From assembly GCA_002424045.1 (NCBI GenBank), contig DIPH01000001.1, forward strand, positions 13,484 through 77,483: a stretch of DNA of 64,000 nucleotides, in the 5' to 3' direction. The translations under genes and the position numbers were made by a program. Source of the stretch: Firmicutes bacterium UBA5493. GTDB lineage: Bacteria > Bacillota > Limnochordia > Darwinibacteriales > Darwinibacteriaceae. Below are positions 6,709 to 57,384 of the stretch, piece after piece (the first letter of the stretch is position 1; the number at the start of each line of letters is the position of its first letter). The notes beneath the pieces were generated by a model. It saw only the letters and a list, made by a program, of their open reading frames with translations. It searched no databases and had not been told where the DNA came from.

Positions 6709-7752
6709 TTACACGTAGATTTCCGAGAATAACTGGCGTAGTTTGGGGTTCTCCCGCAAAACCTCGAGAGTAATAGCTGCATGACTCTTTGTATAGCCGT
6801 TACCGATCAGCATATTGACATCTTTGCCCACCCCTTCAGCACCAAGGGCTGCCGAGGTGAAACTTGTGGCCATGCTGAAGAAATATACCGTTCCCCCATC
6901 ACGGGTACACAGAATCGAGGTCATTTCTGTTTGGGGAATATTCACGCAGTTGATCGTAAGATCGGCAAGCCTGTCCCCACTCGCCTTCTGGAAAGCATGC
7001 AAGCAGTCCACAGGCTTTGTTGCATCCACATCCAGGACCACATCTGCCAGATCGAGCTTCTGGATACGCTGTACCGCCCCATCGCCATAATCCATGGCAA
7101 TGATCTTACCTGAGACACCGGCACGTTTTTTCGCTTCATGGAGGCACAGGCTCCCTGACTTTCCACCTGCTCCCACAATCAAGACTGTATCACCTGGTTT
7201 CACGAGTTTAGCTGTTTGGGCGGGAGCTCCAGCGACGTCCAGGGCAGCCAAAGCTAACTTCTGGGGAAGGTCGTCAGGCAATACTGCATAAATGCCGCTC
7301 TCAAAGAGAATAGCCTGTCCCTTAATATCCACCTGTGCGGTGTCTAAATGAATTTTCTCTATGGTCTCAATGACCAGTGGTGTTAAGGTCAAAGAGACCA
7401 GAGAGGCAATGCGGGATCCTACCTGCAAATCTCGCTTGGCCTCAAGATCACGGCCAATGGCCTTAACGATGCCGATGAACATGCCCCCGGATCCAGTCAC
7501 AGGATTATGGTGTTTTCCCCTGCGGTCAACAATATCAAGCATAATTTGGGCGATCTGGGCTTCATCATCACCGGCTTCTTGCCGAATTTGGGTGAAACTC
7601 GCAGAATCAATATTCAGAGTTTCAACATCGATCAGAATTTCGTTGGGCATAATCTCCATACGGTTATCGAGGCGTTCGGACCCTTGAGGCAGGGCTCCCA
7701 CCGGTGTGATGACCCTATGGGTACCAAATGGACAAGCTACAGTCACAGACAT
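6709..7752 (-). CDS. kdd: L-erythro-3,5-diaminohexanoate dehydrogenase
   Basis: 347 aa NAD(P)-dependent dehydrogenase with a Rossmann motif (LIVGAGGKSGSLCLHEAK). Size and context match Kdd. It is the first gene of the lysine operon in this window. Confidence 0.8.
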   Translation of the reverse strand: MSVTVACPFGTHRVITPVGALPQGSERLDNRMEIMPNEILIDVETLNIDSASFTQIRQEAGDDEAQIAQIMLDIVDRRGKHHNPVTGSGGMFIGIVKAIGRDLEAKRDLQVGSRIASLVSLTLTPLVIETIEKIHLDTAQVDIKGQAILFESGIYAVLPDDLPQKLALAALDVAGAPAQTAKLVKPGDTVLIVGAGGKSGSLCLHEAKKRAGVSGKIIAMDYGDGAVQRIQKLDLADVVLDVDATKPVDCLHAFQKASGDRLADLTINCVNIPQTEMTSILCTRDGGTVYFFSMATSFTSAALGAEGVGKDVNMLIGNGYTKSHAAITLEVLRENPKLRQLFSEIYV

Positions 7753-23383: not shown

Positions 23384-23483
23384 TGGCGGGAGAATATGGG
23401 AATCGAACCCACCGAGGATAACCCTTGTTACCCCCCTGACAGGTTTGAAGCCTGCGGAGCCCACCAGGAACTCAGATCCTCCC
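23384..23483 (-). tRNA. selC: tRNA-Sec (anticodon UCA), selC
   Basis: 100 nt. 8-bp acceptor stem (GGGAGGAU / AUUCUCCC, one G.U), anticodon loop CUUCAAA, long variable arm, T-arm GGTTCGATTCC, encoded CCA. The 3' end abuts the selB stop codon on the opposite strand. Confidence 0.85.
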
Positions 23484-45445: not shown

Positions 45446-46441
45446 TCATCGTTTGAGTTTTTCTACATTTTCTTTCACTTCTCTGTAGGTGGCAGGATTT
45501 AGATGGGCCTTTTCCAGAAGTCGCAACACCTCTTCCACCCTGCGGGTATCGAAAACCTGATCCTTTTTCACATAAGGTTTTCTGACTTGAAAACGTTTGT
45601 GGCCTTGTGACCGGTCATGAGCGCTTAAGTACAACTCCTCCTTGATCAATCGCCTGCAATACCCCACAGGGCAATGCTCATTACGGCACATCTTTTCATG
45701 GAGACAGAGTTCGTCTAAGGCCTTATCTAGCGCCTGGAGGTGCCCCGCAACTGCTTTGAAGGTACCTGGCTTGACTACAGCTTGGCGCCTTTCCCTAAAG
45801 AGCGGGATCAACAGGGACATAAGCAGTGCTGCTAAGAACCCTAAGAACAAAATCGCATTTGGAACGGTCAGAAATCTATCGGGGACGGTCTGGGCTAGAT
45901 GAAAGAGGCCGAATCCTATAAACACAGCACTGGATATTAACTTGAGGGAAAAGTCGGGAATCCGCTCGCCAAGTTTACTACCAACTAAAATGGCAACTAG
46001 ACTCGTTAAGACCATGCCCAGCACAGTTCCAGCCAGAATTGCCCAGGGAAACAGAGCGTTCGATGCTAGAGCAATGGCGGTCAGTTGCGTCTTGTCGCCT
46101 AGTTCACCTAAAAAAAAAGCTAAGGCCACCACCAGTACAGGACTGGTAAAAGCCCTATTTGCACCGTGGCCCTCATCGTCTGTGCTCCTCAGTGTCCATA
46201 ATCCAAAACCCAGAAACAACAGAGCTGATCCGAAACGAATAGCCGATAACGGTACGATGTGGGCCAGATACGCCCCAATGATCACCGCTAAGCCGTGATT
46301 TAAAAAAGACCCGAGGGCTACCCCAGTCAGCACTTGTCCCACCGAAAACTGTAAAGCGAATGTCATGGCAAGTATTTGAGTTTTGTCTCCTAGTTCTGCG
46401 ATAAAAATCAAGCCTGCCGCTTTCCCTATTTCATAGAGCAT
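45446..46441 (-). CDS. UPF0016/GDT1-family (TMEM165-like) cation transporter fused to a C-terminal Cys/His-rich cytoplasmic domain
   Basis: Two E-x-G-D-K-[TS] signature motifs (ELGDKTQ twice) within two 3-TM repeats. Then an extra ~120 aa tail containing CLHEKMCRNEHCPVGYC. ATG 46441 with a GGAAGGGA RBS. Confidence 0.7.
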   Translation of the reverse strand: MLYEIGKAAGLIFIAELGDKTQILAMTFALQFSVGQVLTGVALGSFLNHGLAVIIGAYLAHIVPLSAIRFGSALLFLGFGLWTLRSTDDEGHGANRAFTSPVLVVALAFFLGELGDKTQLTAIALASNALFPWAILAGTVLGMVLTSLVAILVGSKLGERIPDFSLKLISSAVFIGFGLFHLAQTVPDRFLTVPNAILFLGFLAALLMSLLIPLFRERRQAVVKPGTFKAVAGHLQALDKALDELCLHEKMCRNEHCPVGYCRRLIKEELYLSAHDRSQGHKRFQVRKPYVKKDQVFDTRRVEEVLRLLEKAHLNPATYREVKENVEKLKR

Positions 46442-46556
46442 TATGTTCGTCCCTTCCAATAGACACAGTTAAGATTTCTTGACAAGAAACATGCGACTCT
46501 GGCAGGAATTTCGAACCTGCACAGGGTATAAGGATCTGCGAGGGGAGGTAATGAGA

Positions 46557-46766: not shown

Positions 46767-46835
46767 ACAACTGCTCCAATAAACAGCCTTGCCAGATCCG
46801 GCGAGGCTGGTTTTGCGTGGAAAGGAGACCTGAGA

Positions 46836-47582
46836 ATGCTCGTTGAAGTTGTTTGCTACACAATCGAAGATGTCTTTAGGGCCCGTAAGGCCAGAGCCCA
46901 CAGGGTAGAGCTCTGTGCAGATCCTGGTGCTGGCGGTACTACACCGAATTATGGGTTCATAAAGCAGAGCGCCAAATTTGACGATATTGATACCATGGTA
47001 ATGATACGCCCCCGAGGCGGTGATTTCCTCTATAACGGCCAGGAGATTTTGCAAATGGAAGACGATATCCGCCTGGCCGCTCAGTTAGGTGTACAGGGAG
47101 TAGTCTTTGGAGTACTCGATGAGACTGGCTCCTTCGATAGGCCTGCCATGTCACGCCTGGTTCGGCTTGCTAAGGGTCTACAGCTTGAGATCACGTGCCA
47201 CCGTGCCTTTGACGTGGCTCGCGATCCCCATGAATCCTTACAAATCTTGATAGAGTTGGGCGTGGATCGGCTCCTTACCTCAGGGCAACAGAAGACCGCG
47301 GTAGAAGGAATTCCCCTCATACGCGAACTCATAAAACGAGCTGAGGGGAGAATCTCCATTATGCCGGGAGGCGGCATTCGCCCTGAGCATGCAGGAGAGT
47401 TCCTCAAGCTAGATGTGGCAGAAATTCACACAGGAAGCAAGACTAAGGTTCCGTCCCGTATGAAATACGCCCCTTCCGACGTCAAGATGGGATCCGATGA
47501 TACCCAGGAGTATCACTGGTTCGTTGATGTAGAAGCAATCAAATCTATTGTAGAGACGGTGAGAGGTGAGCGCTTGTGCTAA
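46836..47582 (+). CDS. cutC: copper homeostasis protein CutC family (TIM barrel)
   Basis: N-terminus VEVVCYTIEDVFRARKARAHRVELCADPGAGGTTP matches the CutC pattern. AAAGGAGA RBS. Confidence 0.85.
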   Translation: MLVEVVCYTIEDVFRARKARAHRVELCADPGAGGTTPNYGFIKQSAKFDDIDTMVMIRPRGGDFLYNGQEILQMEDDIRLAAQLGVQGVVFGVLDETGSFDRPAMSRLVRLAKGLQLEITCHRAFDVARDPHESLQILIELGVDRLLTSGQQKTAVEGIPLIRELIKRAEGRISIMPGGGIRPEHAGEFLKLDVAEIHTGSKTKVPSRMKYAPSDVKMGSDDTQEYHWFVDVEAIKSIVETVRGERLC

Positions 47583-48826
47583 AAGAAATCCTAGGTCTAG
47601 TCGTCGTTAGTGCGGAAAATGCCTTTATTCAAGTCACCGTATTTGTCGGAGCAGTACTCCTACTCTTTGGCTATGTTGACTACATTTTATCAGGGCGATT
47701 GGTGCAGACGATCGGAGCAGCAAAAAAACTTCAGCCGGTGATAGGTGCGATTTTGGGTCTTATTCCCGGGTGCGGCGGAGCTATTTTTGTCATGCCCCTC
47801 TTTCCTAGAGGAGTCGTGAGTTTTGGAACGGTGATCGCCACCCTATTGGCCACCATGGGTGATTCCGCCTTTGTGCTGATGTCCGTCATGCCTAAACAAT
47901 GGATTTTCGTATCCGTCATCTCGTTTTTTGTGGCAGTCGCTGTAGGTTATATTGTAGACCTCACCCCCATCGGAGATAGACTCCTAGAAAAATACAAAGA
48001 AACCCAAGAAAAGAAGGCCAAAGCACGCCAGCGCCATAAGGAACTGGATCATAGCATTTTCGAGAGCGAAACCGGGATTGCCCATGACCACTGGACTCAT
48101 ATTGGCCACGATGAGGGTGATGACATCGACTTAGCCCTGCACCATGGCACAAAAGGGCATCAGGATATCAATACCTTTGCCTACAAAGCAACCCATCGCG
48201 GCTATATGATTTACTGGGTCATCATTTCGTTGGGCCTAATTCTGGGGATCATGGATCTCCTTCAAATTGATCTCAATGAACTCCTTATTCCCAACTTGGG
48301 CCTGATTTTCGGTGTAACAGGTACCGCCGCCTCTATAGTGTTGATGATCTTAGGCAAAAAGTTAATTGCTAACGACACCCACGAAGAGTCAGAGATGAAA
48401 TTAGCCAGCCTTAAAGAAACATTTGTCCATAACGCCCAAGAAACAGCCTTCGTAGGAACATGGGTCTTTGCAGCCTATTTCGCCTACGAGCTCTTTGTCT
48501 TATCTCTAGGCTCGGGAAGCTATCTAGCGGGAGAAATGGCCATCACTAGCTTTCTGGCCCAGACCGGTTTAATGGCAGTTATAATTGGGGCCCTAGTGGG
48601 GGTAATTCCAGGCTGCGGTCCACAGATCATCTTCGTAACCCTGTTTACCCGGGGTCTCGTTCCCTTCTCTGCCCTACTGGCCAATGCCTTGTCCCAAGAT
48701 GGCGATGCCCTATTCCCCCTTATTGCCATTGATAAGCGTTCAGCCGTATGGGCTACGATAGTTAACACCATACCCGCTCTCATCGTGGGGATCTTAGCCT
48801 ATTGGATCGAAATGACGTACTTCTAG
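47576..48826 (+). CDS. two-repeat polytopic membrane protein with duplicated PGCG(G/P) motifs and a central His-rich cytoplasmic loop; putative metal transporter
   Basis: GTG start overlaps the cutC stop by 7 nt. Internal duplication: LIPGCGGAIFVMPLFPRG and VIPGCGPQIIFVTLFTRG. The central loop KARQRHKELDHSIF...HDHWTHIGHDEGDDIDLALHHGTKGH is rich in His and Asp. Family not recognised. Confidence 0.62.
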   Translation: MLKEILGLVVVSAENAFIQVTVFVGAVLLLFGYVDYILSGRLVQTIGAAKKLQPVIGAILGLIPGCGGAIFVMPLFPRGVVSFGTVIATLLATMGDSAFVLMSVMPKQWIFVSVISFFVAVAVGYIVDLTPIGDRLLEKYKETQEKKAKARQRHKELDHSIFESETGIAHDHWTHIGHDEGDDIDLALHHGTKGHQDINTFAYKATHRGYMIYWVIISLGLILGIMDLLQIDLNELLIPNLGLIFGVTGTAASIVLMILGKKLIANDTHEESEMKLASLKETFVHNAQETAFVGTWVFAAYFAYELFVLSLGSGSYLAGEMAITSFLAQTGLMAVIIGALVGVIPGCGPQIIFVTLFTRGLVPFSALLANALSQDGDALFPLIAIDKRSAVWATIVNTIPALIVGILAYWIEMTYF

Positions 48827-50229
48827 CGTGTAAGGGCCGTCAAACCCGCTGCGGTGATGGCCTGCCCCACCCTGCGGTCGCTCTCATCGGGCAGGTGGAA
48901 GTTTATCTTGGAAAGTTCGGGAAAGTCCGCGTTCAACACTTCGCGGGCTTTTTCTAAAATTAGAATGCCACCCCGACCTGAAGTAACCCGACCTAAGATA
49001 AGTAGGTGTTTGATATCGTAAAAGTCGGCATAATAGGCAACGGAATAACCCAAATAGGTACCGATGCTCTCAAAGATTTTCTGGGCGCCTTCGTGGCCTT
49101 TTCCTAGCAGATCTTGAACCACTTTTAGCTTTTCAGCCGGCGTCAGGTTTTCATCCAAGTCAATTCCAGCGGCAGGGGCCAATTTGATCACAGCATCCTG
49201 GGAAAAGTACTTTACCCCACAACCGTAGTCACCAGACCACTCGTCAACCATGGCCTCTGGATTATAGTCAACGGGCATAAAGGACAGTTCGTTGAGCCAA
49301 CCGGTGAGGGAACCCTCTGCATCCACATAACCAACTGCCTCACTCGTTCCCATGGCTATACCCAAGATGTTGGTATCCTGTAGGGACGAAGCCCCTGCTA
49401 GTGCCGTCACATCTCCATCATTGCGAACTTCAATTGGTACATTGCCGAGTTCTTTGGCCACTCTAGGATAAATATCCTTCACTTTAGCATCAAACAACTC
49501 CTGGGGTACTTTCAGAAAAAGCGAAGCCACCATGGTCCGATTGTTTATGTAGATTCCAGCCGAACTCACACCGATGGCATCAACCCTAGGGAGGTGAGCG
49601 GCTGCTCGTTTGACCGAATCCATAATGCCCTCAAAATGATAGTCTGGGTCTTCTGTCACCTTCGGATGCCACACCGTTTCATCACTATATAGCACTTTAC
49701 CATCCATGACAGCTGCCACTTTGCGATCACTCCCGCCAGCATCAAAGCCGATACGGCAGCCGTCTAGGTGACCTCCCACTGCTTCCGTCTTTTCGTAAGC
49801 CTGAGGCATCTCGGAAAGAACTGCGATTTCCACAGTAAAGACCTGTTCATAAACGCGCCCCATAAACTCCGCATCGAACTCTCTTTGACCGCCTTTTGCA
49901 TAGGCTACCTTTAGCGCCTCCCCCACCTGGGTTGATCCGCCCACAGTTACTTTCCAGCCACCTTTCACCCATAGTAGACACTTCACCAGGCGCTCCATAT
50001 AGAAATAATTAGCCTCATCCCAAGCATCTTTGATTCCGGAAGGAAAAAGATTCGTCTCGTAGACTGCGACTTGGCTCTGATCCCGCTCAATTGCAACGGC
50101 AACGGGCTGGGCTCGACCACATGCTTGAACGGCCTGGGCAAAAGCCCTATTCCATAACACAGCAGGGCGAAAATCTGGATCCAGTTCTGGAACCAGTCTG
50201 GGTGTTGCTTCCCTATCTAGGTTCATCAT
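48823..50229 (-). CDS. ASKHA-superfamily (ROK/glucokinase-like) putative sugar kinase with a ~150 aa N-terminal extension
   Basis: Motifs RIGFDAGGSDRKVAAV (phosphate 1), NDGDVTALAG, and GIAMGTSEAVG (phosphate 2) fit an actin-fold sugar kinase. The ROK zinc motif CxCGxxGC is absent. Confidence 0.5.
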   Translation of the reverse strand: MMNLDREATPRLVPELDPDFRPAVLWNRAFAQAVQACGRAQPVAVAIERDQSQVAVYETNLFPSGIKDAWDEANYFYMERLVKCLLWVKGGWKVTVGGSTQVGEALKVAYAKGGQREFDAEFMGRVYEQVFTVEIAVLSEMPQAYEKTEAVGGHLDGCRIGFDAGGSDRKVAAVMDGKVLYSDETVWHPKVTEDPDYHFEGIMDSVKRAAAHLPRVDAIGVSSAGIYINNRTMVASLFLKVPQELFDAKVKDIYPRVAKELGNVPIEVRNDGDVTALAGASSLQDTNILGIAMGTSEAVGYVDAEGSLTGWLNELSFMPVDYNPEAMVDEWSGDYGCGVKYFSQDAVIKLAPAAGIDLDENLTPAEKLKVVQDLLGKGHEGAQKIFESIGTYLGYSVAYYADFYDIKHLLILGRVTSGRGGILILEKAREVLNADFPELSKINFHLPDESDRRVGQAITAAGLTALTR

Positions 50230-57195: not shown

Positions 57196-57234
57196 CTTGG
57201 CTCCCCCTTGTCAGACCTCAACCTACACAAATCC

Positions 57235-57348
57235 AAAAGGGGCTTCTACCGGTTGGTAGAAGCCCCATCTTCGCAAAGTGGTAACACAGAGTATTGCATA
57301 GAAAACTCTTGTGCTTTGTGTAGGCGTCCTTCCCAACCTCTCTGGATT
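57235..57348 (-). promoter_or_regulatory. PyrR-type transcription attenuator in the pyrB leader (PyrR binding loop plus intrinsic terminator)
   Basis: The minus strand reads AATCCAGAGAGGTTGGGAAGG at 57328-57348, matching the UCCAGAGAGGCU binding loop. Downstream, GGGGCTTCTACCaaccGGTAGAAGCCCC followed by TTTTGG at 57235-57266 lies 40 nt before the pyrB start. Confidence 0.6.
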
Positions 57349-57384
57349 GGCTTAAAGGTCTTTTTTGTGTTTTTCTTCTAATCC

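Follow-up and report, generated by a model that had tools for sequence, protein, structure and literature searches.

A ten-helix membrane protein of the PF11449 (ArsP_2) family in a Limnochordia genome as a putative divalent-metal carrier

The window analyzed here is a stretch of 64,000 nucleotides (nt) of the genome of Firmicutes bacterium UBA5493 (contig DIPH01000001.1). The gene under study encodes a membrane protein of 416 amino acids (aa) that belongs to the ArsP_2 family (Pfam: PF11449) and is located directly downstream of a cutC-family gene (Table 1). The GTG start codon of this transporter gene (47576-47578) and the TAA stop codon of cutC (47580-47582) overlap as GTGCTAA, 7 nt in total, and a purine-rich, Shine-Dalgarno-like sequence, AGAGGTGA, is found 6-14 nt 5' of the GTG. 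This start is considered sound because the N-termini of the homologues share the aligned start column and a 416-aa database protein in public assemblies is 100% identical. The reading frame and its overlap with the cutC stop, both given in a preliminary description made from the sequence alone, were thus confirmed.

Table 1. Genes, protein segments, and other elements described in the text, with their positions in the window. Residue numbers refer to the transporter protein.
Feature	Position	Strand	Description
Transporter gene	47576..48826	+	416 aa, GTG start, stop included; PF11449 (ArsP_2) 10-helix membrane transporter
Repeat 1, residues 1-132	47576..47971	+	four-helix unit TM1-TM4; homologous to residues 278-416
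First PGCG motif, P64 G65 C66 G67	47765..47776	+	helix 2 break; P64 and G65 113/113, C66 111/113
T-M-G-D motif, T93-D96	47852..47863	+	helix 3 break; T93 111/113, G95 113/113, D96 111/113 (other two Glu)
Central loop, residues 130-200	47963..48175	+	predicted cytoplasmic; Lys/Arg-rich helix, then His/Asp/Glu-rich segment
Loop motif HIGHDEGDDIDLALHHGTKGH, residues 175-195	48098..48160	+	signature of the His-loop subfamily
Two central helices ('N=2' insert), residues 201-260	48176..48355	+	helices 201-228 and 241-260 in both structural models
Repeat 2, residues 278-416	48407..48823	+	four-helix unit TM7-TM10; homologous to residues 1-132
Second PGCG motif, P345 G346 C347 G348	48608..48619	+	helix 8 break; P345 112/113, C347 111/113; Q350 102/113
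D-G-D motif, D375 G376 D377	48698..48706	+	helix 9 break; 111/113, 112/113, and 109/113; nearby N370 107/113
GDT1/UPF0016-family gene	45446..46459	-	337 aa; PF01169; divergent from mini-protein gene
Divergent control region, GDT1 gene / mini-protein gene	46460..46556	.	blocks GGCAGGA(A/T)TT and GGGTAT(A/T)A
Mini-protein gene	46557 (ATG)..46766 (stop)	+	69 aa; orphan, heads the gene string; GGGGAGG 8 nt before ATG
Terminator-like hairpin	46784..46809	+	mini-protein gene/cutC gap; 10-bp stem, weak T tract; consensus scan
cutC-family gene	46836..47582	+	248 aa; PF03932, E=2e-64
ROK-like gene	48823..50229	-	468 aa; convergent with the transporter gene
tRNA-Sec gene	23388..23483	-	65.5 bits
PyrR-binding attenuator element	57232..57362	-	60.7 bits (gathering score 54)

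The protein encoded by the transporter gene matches the Pfam model PF11449 with 308.8 bits (cut-off 32.5; E=7e-92), residues 8-411 being aligned to model positions 5-358/359, and the NCBIfam model NF037962, titled 'arsenic efflux protein', with 263.5 bits (cut-off 100; E=2e-78). PF11449 proteins are assigned to the TCDB subfamily 2.A.119.2 and contain two homologous four-helix units with two or four extra helices between them (Medrano-Soto et al., 2020; PMC7176098). All the tested features of this family were found in the window protein, including the hidden Markov model (HMM) scores, the 4+N+4 repeat, two PGCG motifs, and the TxGD and DGD motifs. Over its full length it belongs to PF11449, NF037962, and TCDB 2.A.119.2. 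It shares with the family the 4+2+4 plan, the four-helix repeat, and both PGCG motifs, without any structural difference; the subfamily to which it belongs has, in addition, an HxGHxEGD…LHH loop. When the complete protein, its two halves, and the loop were scanned against Pfam with E values up to 10 admitted, no link to ArsP_1, CDF, ZIP, or other transporter families was seen. The novelty claimed in the preliminary description, in which the protein represented an unrecognised family and an uncharacterised transporter class, therefore fails: the family is catalogued under all three identifiers and its repeat was published in 2020. The gene is a fresh member of a catalogued, functionally uncharacterised family.

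The family has many members: when 1.84 billion representatives were searched exhaustively with HMMER, 1633 cluster representatives were obtained at E<=0.001, and there are thousands of 90%-identity clusters. The Pfam title of PF11449 is 'Putative, 10TM heavy-metal exporter', and source annotations use 'arsenic efflux protein' in some cases and 'putative manganese transporter' in others; one and the same sequence sometimes carries both. For neither database name did we find an underlying experiment.

The internal duplication is evident at the level of both single sequence and family. BLASTP aligned residues 1-132 with residues 278-416 at E=2e-14 and 30% identity, and HHalign of the family profiles of both halves (113 diverse relatives) gave a probability of 99.4% and E=7.8e-22 over 123 columns, which is the whole four-helix unit. 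In the half-to-half alignment, PGCGGAI is paired with PGCGPQI, ATMGDSAF with SQDGDALF, and SAENAF with AQETAF. The two PGCG-containing motifs on which the duplication had originally been proposed, LIPGCGGAIFVMPLFPRG at residues 62-79 and VIPGCGPQIIFVTLFTRG at residues 343-360, are both present, and the duplication itself is confirmed by these alignments.

Two AlphaFold2 (AF2) models, with predicted local distance difference test (pLDDT) values of 77 and 82.8 and predicted template modeling (pTM) scores of 0.64 and 0.79, agree in ten long helices, four of which are broken. The predicted breaks are located at residues 63-66 (PGCG), 93-96 (TMGD), 342-347 (a turn ending in PGC), and 374-375 (the start of DGD). 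By Lys/Arg counts, the N-terminus and the loops 76-82, 130-200, 261-278, and 359-363 were placed in the cytoplasm. The predicted helix plan is 4+2+4, matching the topology described for TC 2.A.119. In this plan TM1 and TM7 share the inside-to-outside direction, with two helices between the units, so that the two repeats are parallel; this parity argument is valid whether the broken elements cross the membrane or re-enter. A two-repeat polytopic, transporter-like protein, as first described, is thus supported; the inverted-repeat topology assigned to it is not, given the loop counts and the two separating helices, and the PGCG motifs are found not at the start of a transmembrane bundle but at the break within the second helix of each four-helix unit. 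No solved structure resembles the predicted model. Sequence search of PDB found no relative, the sole match (E=0.16) being a sensory rhodopsin II transducer. The Foldseek lists for the models are headed by elevator-type carriers (NaDC1, NaS1, CitS, and TRAP SiaQM), all below any threshold, and no elevator-carrier fold is claimed on such sub-threshold matches.

Residue conservation was analyzed in 113 diverse family representatives with 25-68% identity to the window protein, the sample to which the fractions in Table 1 refer. All four helix breaks carry near-invariant residues. The window protein contains only two Cys residues, C66 and C347, one per PGCG motif. Both are kept in 111 of the 113 representatives, so the conserved Cys of the two half-motifs, read in the preliminary description as a hint of soft-metal coordination, hold family-wide. 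A metal would be the most reasonable substrate.

The central loop follows a different pattern of conservation. Residues 130-200 contain 9 His, 15 Asp/Glu, and 10 Lys/Arg, in agreement with the earlier picture of a loop packed with His and Asp, and AF2 confidence is low at residues 162-196. In 33 relatives with at least 61% identity, H175, H178, E180, D182, D185, H189, H190, and H195 are invariant, as are H207, H269, and H285. The H.GH.EGD and LHH patterns are kept in approximately 66 of the 78 homologues with 47-87% identity; these homologues belong to Bacillota, Bacteroidota, Planctomycetota, Lentisphaerota, Fusobacteriota, Atribacterota, Desulfobacterota, and Ignavibacteriota, mostly to anaerobic lineages. 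Among the 113 more diverse representatives, loop length and His content are widely variable: at least five loop His were found in only about 14, most have 0-3 His in a loop of 27-40 residues, and H.GH.EGD is mostly absent. With the His motif kept only in one subfamily, the loop is a structured mark of that subfamily and does not characterize the family as a whole. Conservation of the His residues, which had been proposed together with that of the Cys, stands within the His-loop subfamily and is lost family-wide.

The same loop had been likened to the metal-binding loops of CDF and ZIP transporters. As a functional analogy this holds: the cytoplasmic loops of CDF (ZnT, CzcD) and ZIP proteins are likewise rich in His, Asp, and Glu, and a role in metal sensing or delivery is plausible for both. 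As homology it does not hold, since no Pfam or PDB-fold relation was found, and the loop of the window protein is a conserved subfamily motif and not a low-complexity tract.

For the analysis of gene context, 80 genomes with relatives at 47-87% identity were used, 12 of which form the window's own syntenic lineage. Outside this lineage, no constant operon partner was found when three genes on each side were clustered for 78 loci, and Pfam tallies of the immediate neighbours agree. The 126 immediate neighbours, 62 of them upstream and 64 downstream, include no recurrent family of the ars, cop, czc, or MerR/ArsR type; a MerR-type DNA-binding domain (PF12728, HTH_17) is present in 2 of the 62 upstream neighbours. 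Additionally, no ars genes were found in 10 Pfam-annotated loci of other clades.

Genes for iron metabolism were found beside some of the relatives. FeoA or FeoB is encoded no more than two genes upstream of the ArsP_2 gene in four loci (L018, L022, L039, and L041). In the major short-loop clade, a ferrochelatase gene lies directly downstream in five of the six alphaproteobacterial genomes, and in another clade genes for bacterioferritin and Bfd were found 3 kb from the ArsP_2 gene. In L081-L086 and L088, the ArsP_2 gene is followed after 65-170 nt by the ferrochelatase gene and then by genes for Band_7 and NfeD proteins; this order is kept despite differing upstream neighbours, such as the cytochrome bc1 genes in L085. 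In two Clostridia, the ArsP_2 gene is followed by a cobalamin riboswitch of the same strand, in L019 (7590..7769) after approximately 45 nt and in L029 (7047..7284) after approximately 400 nt. In both, the nearest called open reading frame past the riboswitch is on the opposite strand.

Candidate Fur-binding sites were searched for with the consensus TGATAATNATTATCA, allowing no more than two mismatches; divergent neighbours sharing the region were excluded from the controls. In 11 of 75 loci a predicted Fur box precedes the start of the orthologue by 27-153 nt; of the 864 control regions, which lie upstream of other genes in these loci, 12 contain one (Fisher p=2.6e-7; p=2.5e-5 in an earlier, more conservative count). 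The 11 loci represent several families and two phyla and include those of Wukongibacter, Tepidibacter, Tissierellales, Clostridium hydrogeniformans, Peptococcaceae, Hathewaya, and Phycisphaerales. In Hathewaya the box is perfect and is located 6 nt downstream of a -10-like TATACT and approximately 35 nt before the ribosome-binding site. Matches to the consensus of Zur, MntR, PerR, DtxR, Irr-ICE, CsoR, and ArsR were not enriched over shuffles. Perfect Fur boxes, TGATAATCATTATCA, were also found in L018 and L022 (13570..16546) before small genes for proteins of 70-100 aa, a few kb from the cluster of ArsP_2 and FeoA/FeoB genes, which suggests a local iron-regulated gene group.

No riboswitches were found near the window gene or upstream of its homologues in 12 loci, and the lysine, cobalamin, purine, and ZMP elements detected in those loci belong to other genes. 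The Fur-box enrichment and the Feo, ferrochelatase, and bacterioferritin neighbours can be taken as hints of iron. Together with the conservation pattern, the regulation and gene neighbours of the relatives speak against arsenic and for iron or some other divalent metal.

The cutC gene, to which translational coupling had been described, adjoins the transporter gene in only 7 of the 80 related loci, all of them from the window's own syntenic lineage. In five sister genomes, the mini-protein gene is followed by the transporter gene, with no cutC. In L004, a 74-aa cutC fragment (7524..7745, 68% identity) is found between the two, suggesting that cutC is ancestral in this lineage and decaying in some members. 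In E. coli, the copper phenotype of cutC is due to the small RNA MicL (PMC4102768). As an argument for copper, the cutC overlap carries little weight, because it is limited to a single lineage and because of this MicL effect. The link between the transporter and cutC reflects chance gene order in this lineage and is not a mark of function.

Two members of the wider TCDB family have experimental support: ArsP of Campylobacter jejuni and SO_0444 of Shewanella, the latter by copper and zinc fitness and complementation (PMC3219624). ArsP is an organoarsenical efflux permease (TC 2.A.119.1, PF03773) that shares with the window protein the TCDB family, two four-helix repeats, and membrane Cys. In contrast to ArsP, each repeat of the window protein contains one Cys, within PGCG, instead of a CSC-type pair, the relatives of the window protein have no recurrent ars neighbours, and neither the whole protein nor either half matches PF03773 even at E up to 10. 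Membership in the characterised ArsP branch is not demonstrable. The SO_0444 family (Cu/Zn efflux, NF033936, TC 2.A.119.1.6) and the predicted SaoE are distant relatives that handle metal cations, so the superfamily is not restricted to arsenicals. The window protein differs from the SO_0444 family in the absence of a CSC/USC motif and in matching only NF037962 at E<=0.01; the sole ArsP_2 representative that matches NF033936, P0228, does so below threshold (21.7 bits, cut-off 300). In addition, no ZntR/MerR-type regulator is encoded by the window neighbours (GDT1, mini-protein, CutC, and ROK-like genes), and the regulatory signals of the window-protein orthologues are Fur-type.

The reading that we favor is a divalent-metal carrier with a two-thiol/three-carboxylate site, a cytoplasmic metal loop, and Fe2+ uptake as the leading function, to which we assign a probability of about 0.42. 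The gene product would be a secondary carrier of ten helices in the 4+2+4 arrangement, with two parallel units that originated by duplication. The breaks predicted in helices 2 and 3 of each unit, which carry the near-invariant residues, would lie in the middle of the membrane. The thiols of C66 and C347 and the carboxylates of D96, D375, and D377, together with Thr, Asn, and Gln, would form one central site for a divalent transition metal, and alternating access about the pseudo-twofold axis would move the metal ion. The HxGHxEGDxIDLxLHHxxKGH loop would most likely bind the same metal in the cytoplasm, for sensing or hand-over. The leading candidate substrate is Fe2+, transported inward, with Zn2+, Mn2+, and Co2+ as alternatives; the inward direction is preferred because a Fur operator where promoter overlap is expected implies expression under iron scarcity.

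Several observations weigh against this carrier reading. Thiolate ligands are equally suited to Zn, Cd, Cu(I), and As(III). The window gene itself is located next to a cutC-family gene, with which it is probably co-transcribed, and to a gene for a GDT1 (Mn/Ca) transporter. No Fur box with up to two mismatches is found in the 64-kb window, the best candidate in the control region having four mismatches, and only about 15% of the orthologues have such a box. Consensus sequences of the Fur family are alike, and the AT-rich genomes of Clostridia raise the background. The alphaproteobacterial genomes with the ferrochelatase link are mutually syntenic and may represent a single event. Foldseek comparison of the two AF2 models with PDB gave nothing significant (best E=0.22, top TM-score 0.37), and a literature search for PF11449, ArsP_2, DUF2899, IPR021552, NF037962, and both product names found no functional study.

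A metal as substrate is the part of the earlier soft-metal proposal, which left open export or import, that agrees with the present analysis; its efflux version becomes an unlikely alternative. According to this alternative, the protein is a pump for soft or heavy metals (Cu(I), Ag, Zn, or Cd) in which the Cys pair binds the metal, the His loop collects it, and the carrier expels it, as proposed for SO_0444. The near-invariance of both Cys, the resemblance of the His-rich cytoplasmic loop to those of CDF and ZIP proteins (a textbook analogy), and the Pfam label 'putative heavy-metal exporter' all fit such a pump. So does the requirement of SO_0444, from another TC 2.A.119 branch, for copper and zinc tolerance of Shewanella, which was confirmed by complementation (PMC3219624), and a weak match to the SO_0444 model was obtained for the representative P0228 (E=9e-5); however, the window protein has neither an NF033936 match nor a CSC motif. 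The overlap with cutC in the window and the tight cutC linkage in seven genomes of the lineage would also suit a copper pump, but cutC is absent in 73 of 80 loci and decayed in L004, and the E. coli phenotype is due to MicL. The co-occurrence with copZ or csoR that the preliminary description proposed to check was not found: no copZ, csoR, copA, CueR, ZntR, ArsR-family, or other metal-resistance gene is recurrent beside the homologues. The gene contexts are of the housekeeping type and are not resistance islands, and CsoR-like and ArsR-like boxes are unenriched. Finally, Fur boxes at promoter-overlap positions imply induction in metal scarcity, the opposite of what is expected for efflux.

An improbable reading is that of a manganese transporter, in which the carboxylate-rich site carries Mn2+, perhaps balancing manganese together with the divergent GDT1/UPF0016 protein. 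Several sources label relatives 'putative manganese transporter'; this name, however, is an automated label, behind which the literature holds no experiment that we could find. A riboswitch basis for the name is also unsupported, because no Mn riboswitch was found in the window or in the 12 related loci. The GDT1-family gene diverges from the same control region in 12 of 12 genomes of the lineage, but this linkage is limited to that one syntenic lineage; in three further loci (L020, L026, and L032) an MntP/YtaF-like gene, assigned by eye, is found two genes upstream. A hard cation would fit the three conserved Asp; against this reading stand two invariant thiols, unusual ligands of Mn2+ in textbook coordination chemistry, and the absence of an MntR-like box from all 92 upstream regions.

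The two proteins encoded side by side also invite comparison. GDT1 carriers are characterized by the motif E-x-G-D-(K/R)-(T/S). By sequence inspection, GDT1/UPF0016 carriers may be seen as analogous to the window protein in having two repeats with a membrane acidic x-G-D motif. They differ in helix count and have no Cys motif, and PF01169 matches only the neighbour.

Quite improbable is a carrier of non-metal substrates, such as a small organic cation or a sulfur or selenium species, in which the thiols would have a catalytic or relay role like that in thiosulfate carriers of the YeeE type. Membrane-embedded Cys at helix ends could serve in this way, the tRNA-Sec gene in the window indicates that the host uses selenium, and the gene context is variable and uninformative at most loci. 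Nevertheless, the conserved carboxylates favor a cation, the His/Asp/Glu motif of the loop is typical of metal binding, iron is indicated by the enriched Fur boxes and the adjacent Feo genes, and no YeeE structure is among the Foldseek matches. Least credible of all is an arsenical efflux permease exporting trivalent (organo)arsenicals through its thiols like Campylobacter ArsP: the NF037962 title, the Pfam name ArsP_2, the TCDB grouping with ArsP, and the conserved Cys would support it, but none of the 113 representatives matches PF03773 (ArsP_1) at E<=0.01, there is one Cys per repeat, no ars operon gene is recurrent beside approximately 90 loci, and five conserved acidic residues embedded in the membrane would be unexpected for neutral As(III) species.

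Among the other genes of the window, the gene for the 69-aa mini-protein, which is the first in the gene string, was noted earlier as having its own ribosome-binding site, and this was confirmed. No family was found for the mini-protein in Pfam or NCBIfam, and its HMM matches only in the 12 syntenic loci. A global search yielded 40 clusters with at least 67% identity, nearly all of 65-72 aa and from similar uncultured Bacillota. To judge from these relatives, the gene is a genuine, conserved, lineage-restricted orphan. A family-wide partnership of the mini-protein with the transporter was rejected, the HMM matches being confined to the 12 syntenic loci and the global matches to the 40 close clusters. 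Its gene is always located between the GDT1 gene and the transporter gene, whether cutC is present or not. The mini-protein is unlike a metallochaperone because it contains no Cys and a single His.

The hairpin between this gene and cutC may function as a partial terminator. In the control region upstream, the block GGCAGGA(A/T)TT is followed after 12-13 nt by GGGTAT(A/T)A in 13 of 13 genomes compared by eye (the window, L001-L011, L035, and L068, as listed). These blocks do not fit the sigma-70 consensus scan and could be an alternative sigma factor promoter or an operator.

The divergent GDT1/UPF0016 protein has an additional C-terminal tail of approximately 120 aa with the Cys-rich motif CLHEKMCRNEHCPVGYC (C-x6-C-x4-C-x4-C). 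The tblastn matches of approximately 330 aa in the 12 syntenic genomes suggest that this tail is retained, and it may be a metal-sensing or regulatory domain. On the other side of the transporter gene, the convergent 468-aa protein has a weak match to the ROK family (E=4e-6) and no match in NCBIfam, and it is syntenic in eight genomes of the lineage. The stops of this gene and the transporter gene overlap by 4 nt, which leaves no space for a terminator between them. Elsewhere in the window, a PyrR-binding attenuator element was detected, as well as the tRNA-Sec gene, according to which the host makes selenoproteins (Table 1).

For the window itself, the present analysis is mainly corrective, as the transporter is an ordinary member of a catalogued family. 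At the level of that family, its interest lies in a specific, testable iron or divalent-metal hypothesis and in a transporter fold lacking an experimental structure. The large PF11449 family spreads through genome annotation under two conflicting names. Returning to the divalent-metal carrier, we tentatively propose for the His-loop branch of PF11449, as a doubtful extension, an unrecognised Fur-controlled carrier for uptake of ferrous iron (or of mixed Fe/Zn/Mn) that would be widespread, mostly in anaerobic lineages, in at least eight phyla. If this were true, both 'arsenic efflux protein' and 'putative manganese transporter' would be wrong for thousands of genes, and the branch would have a fold without any solved representative, with a two-thiol/three-carboxylate site in the middle of the membrane and an HxGHxEGD…LHH loop.

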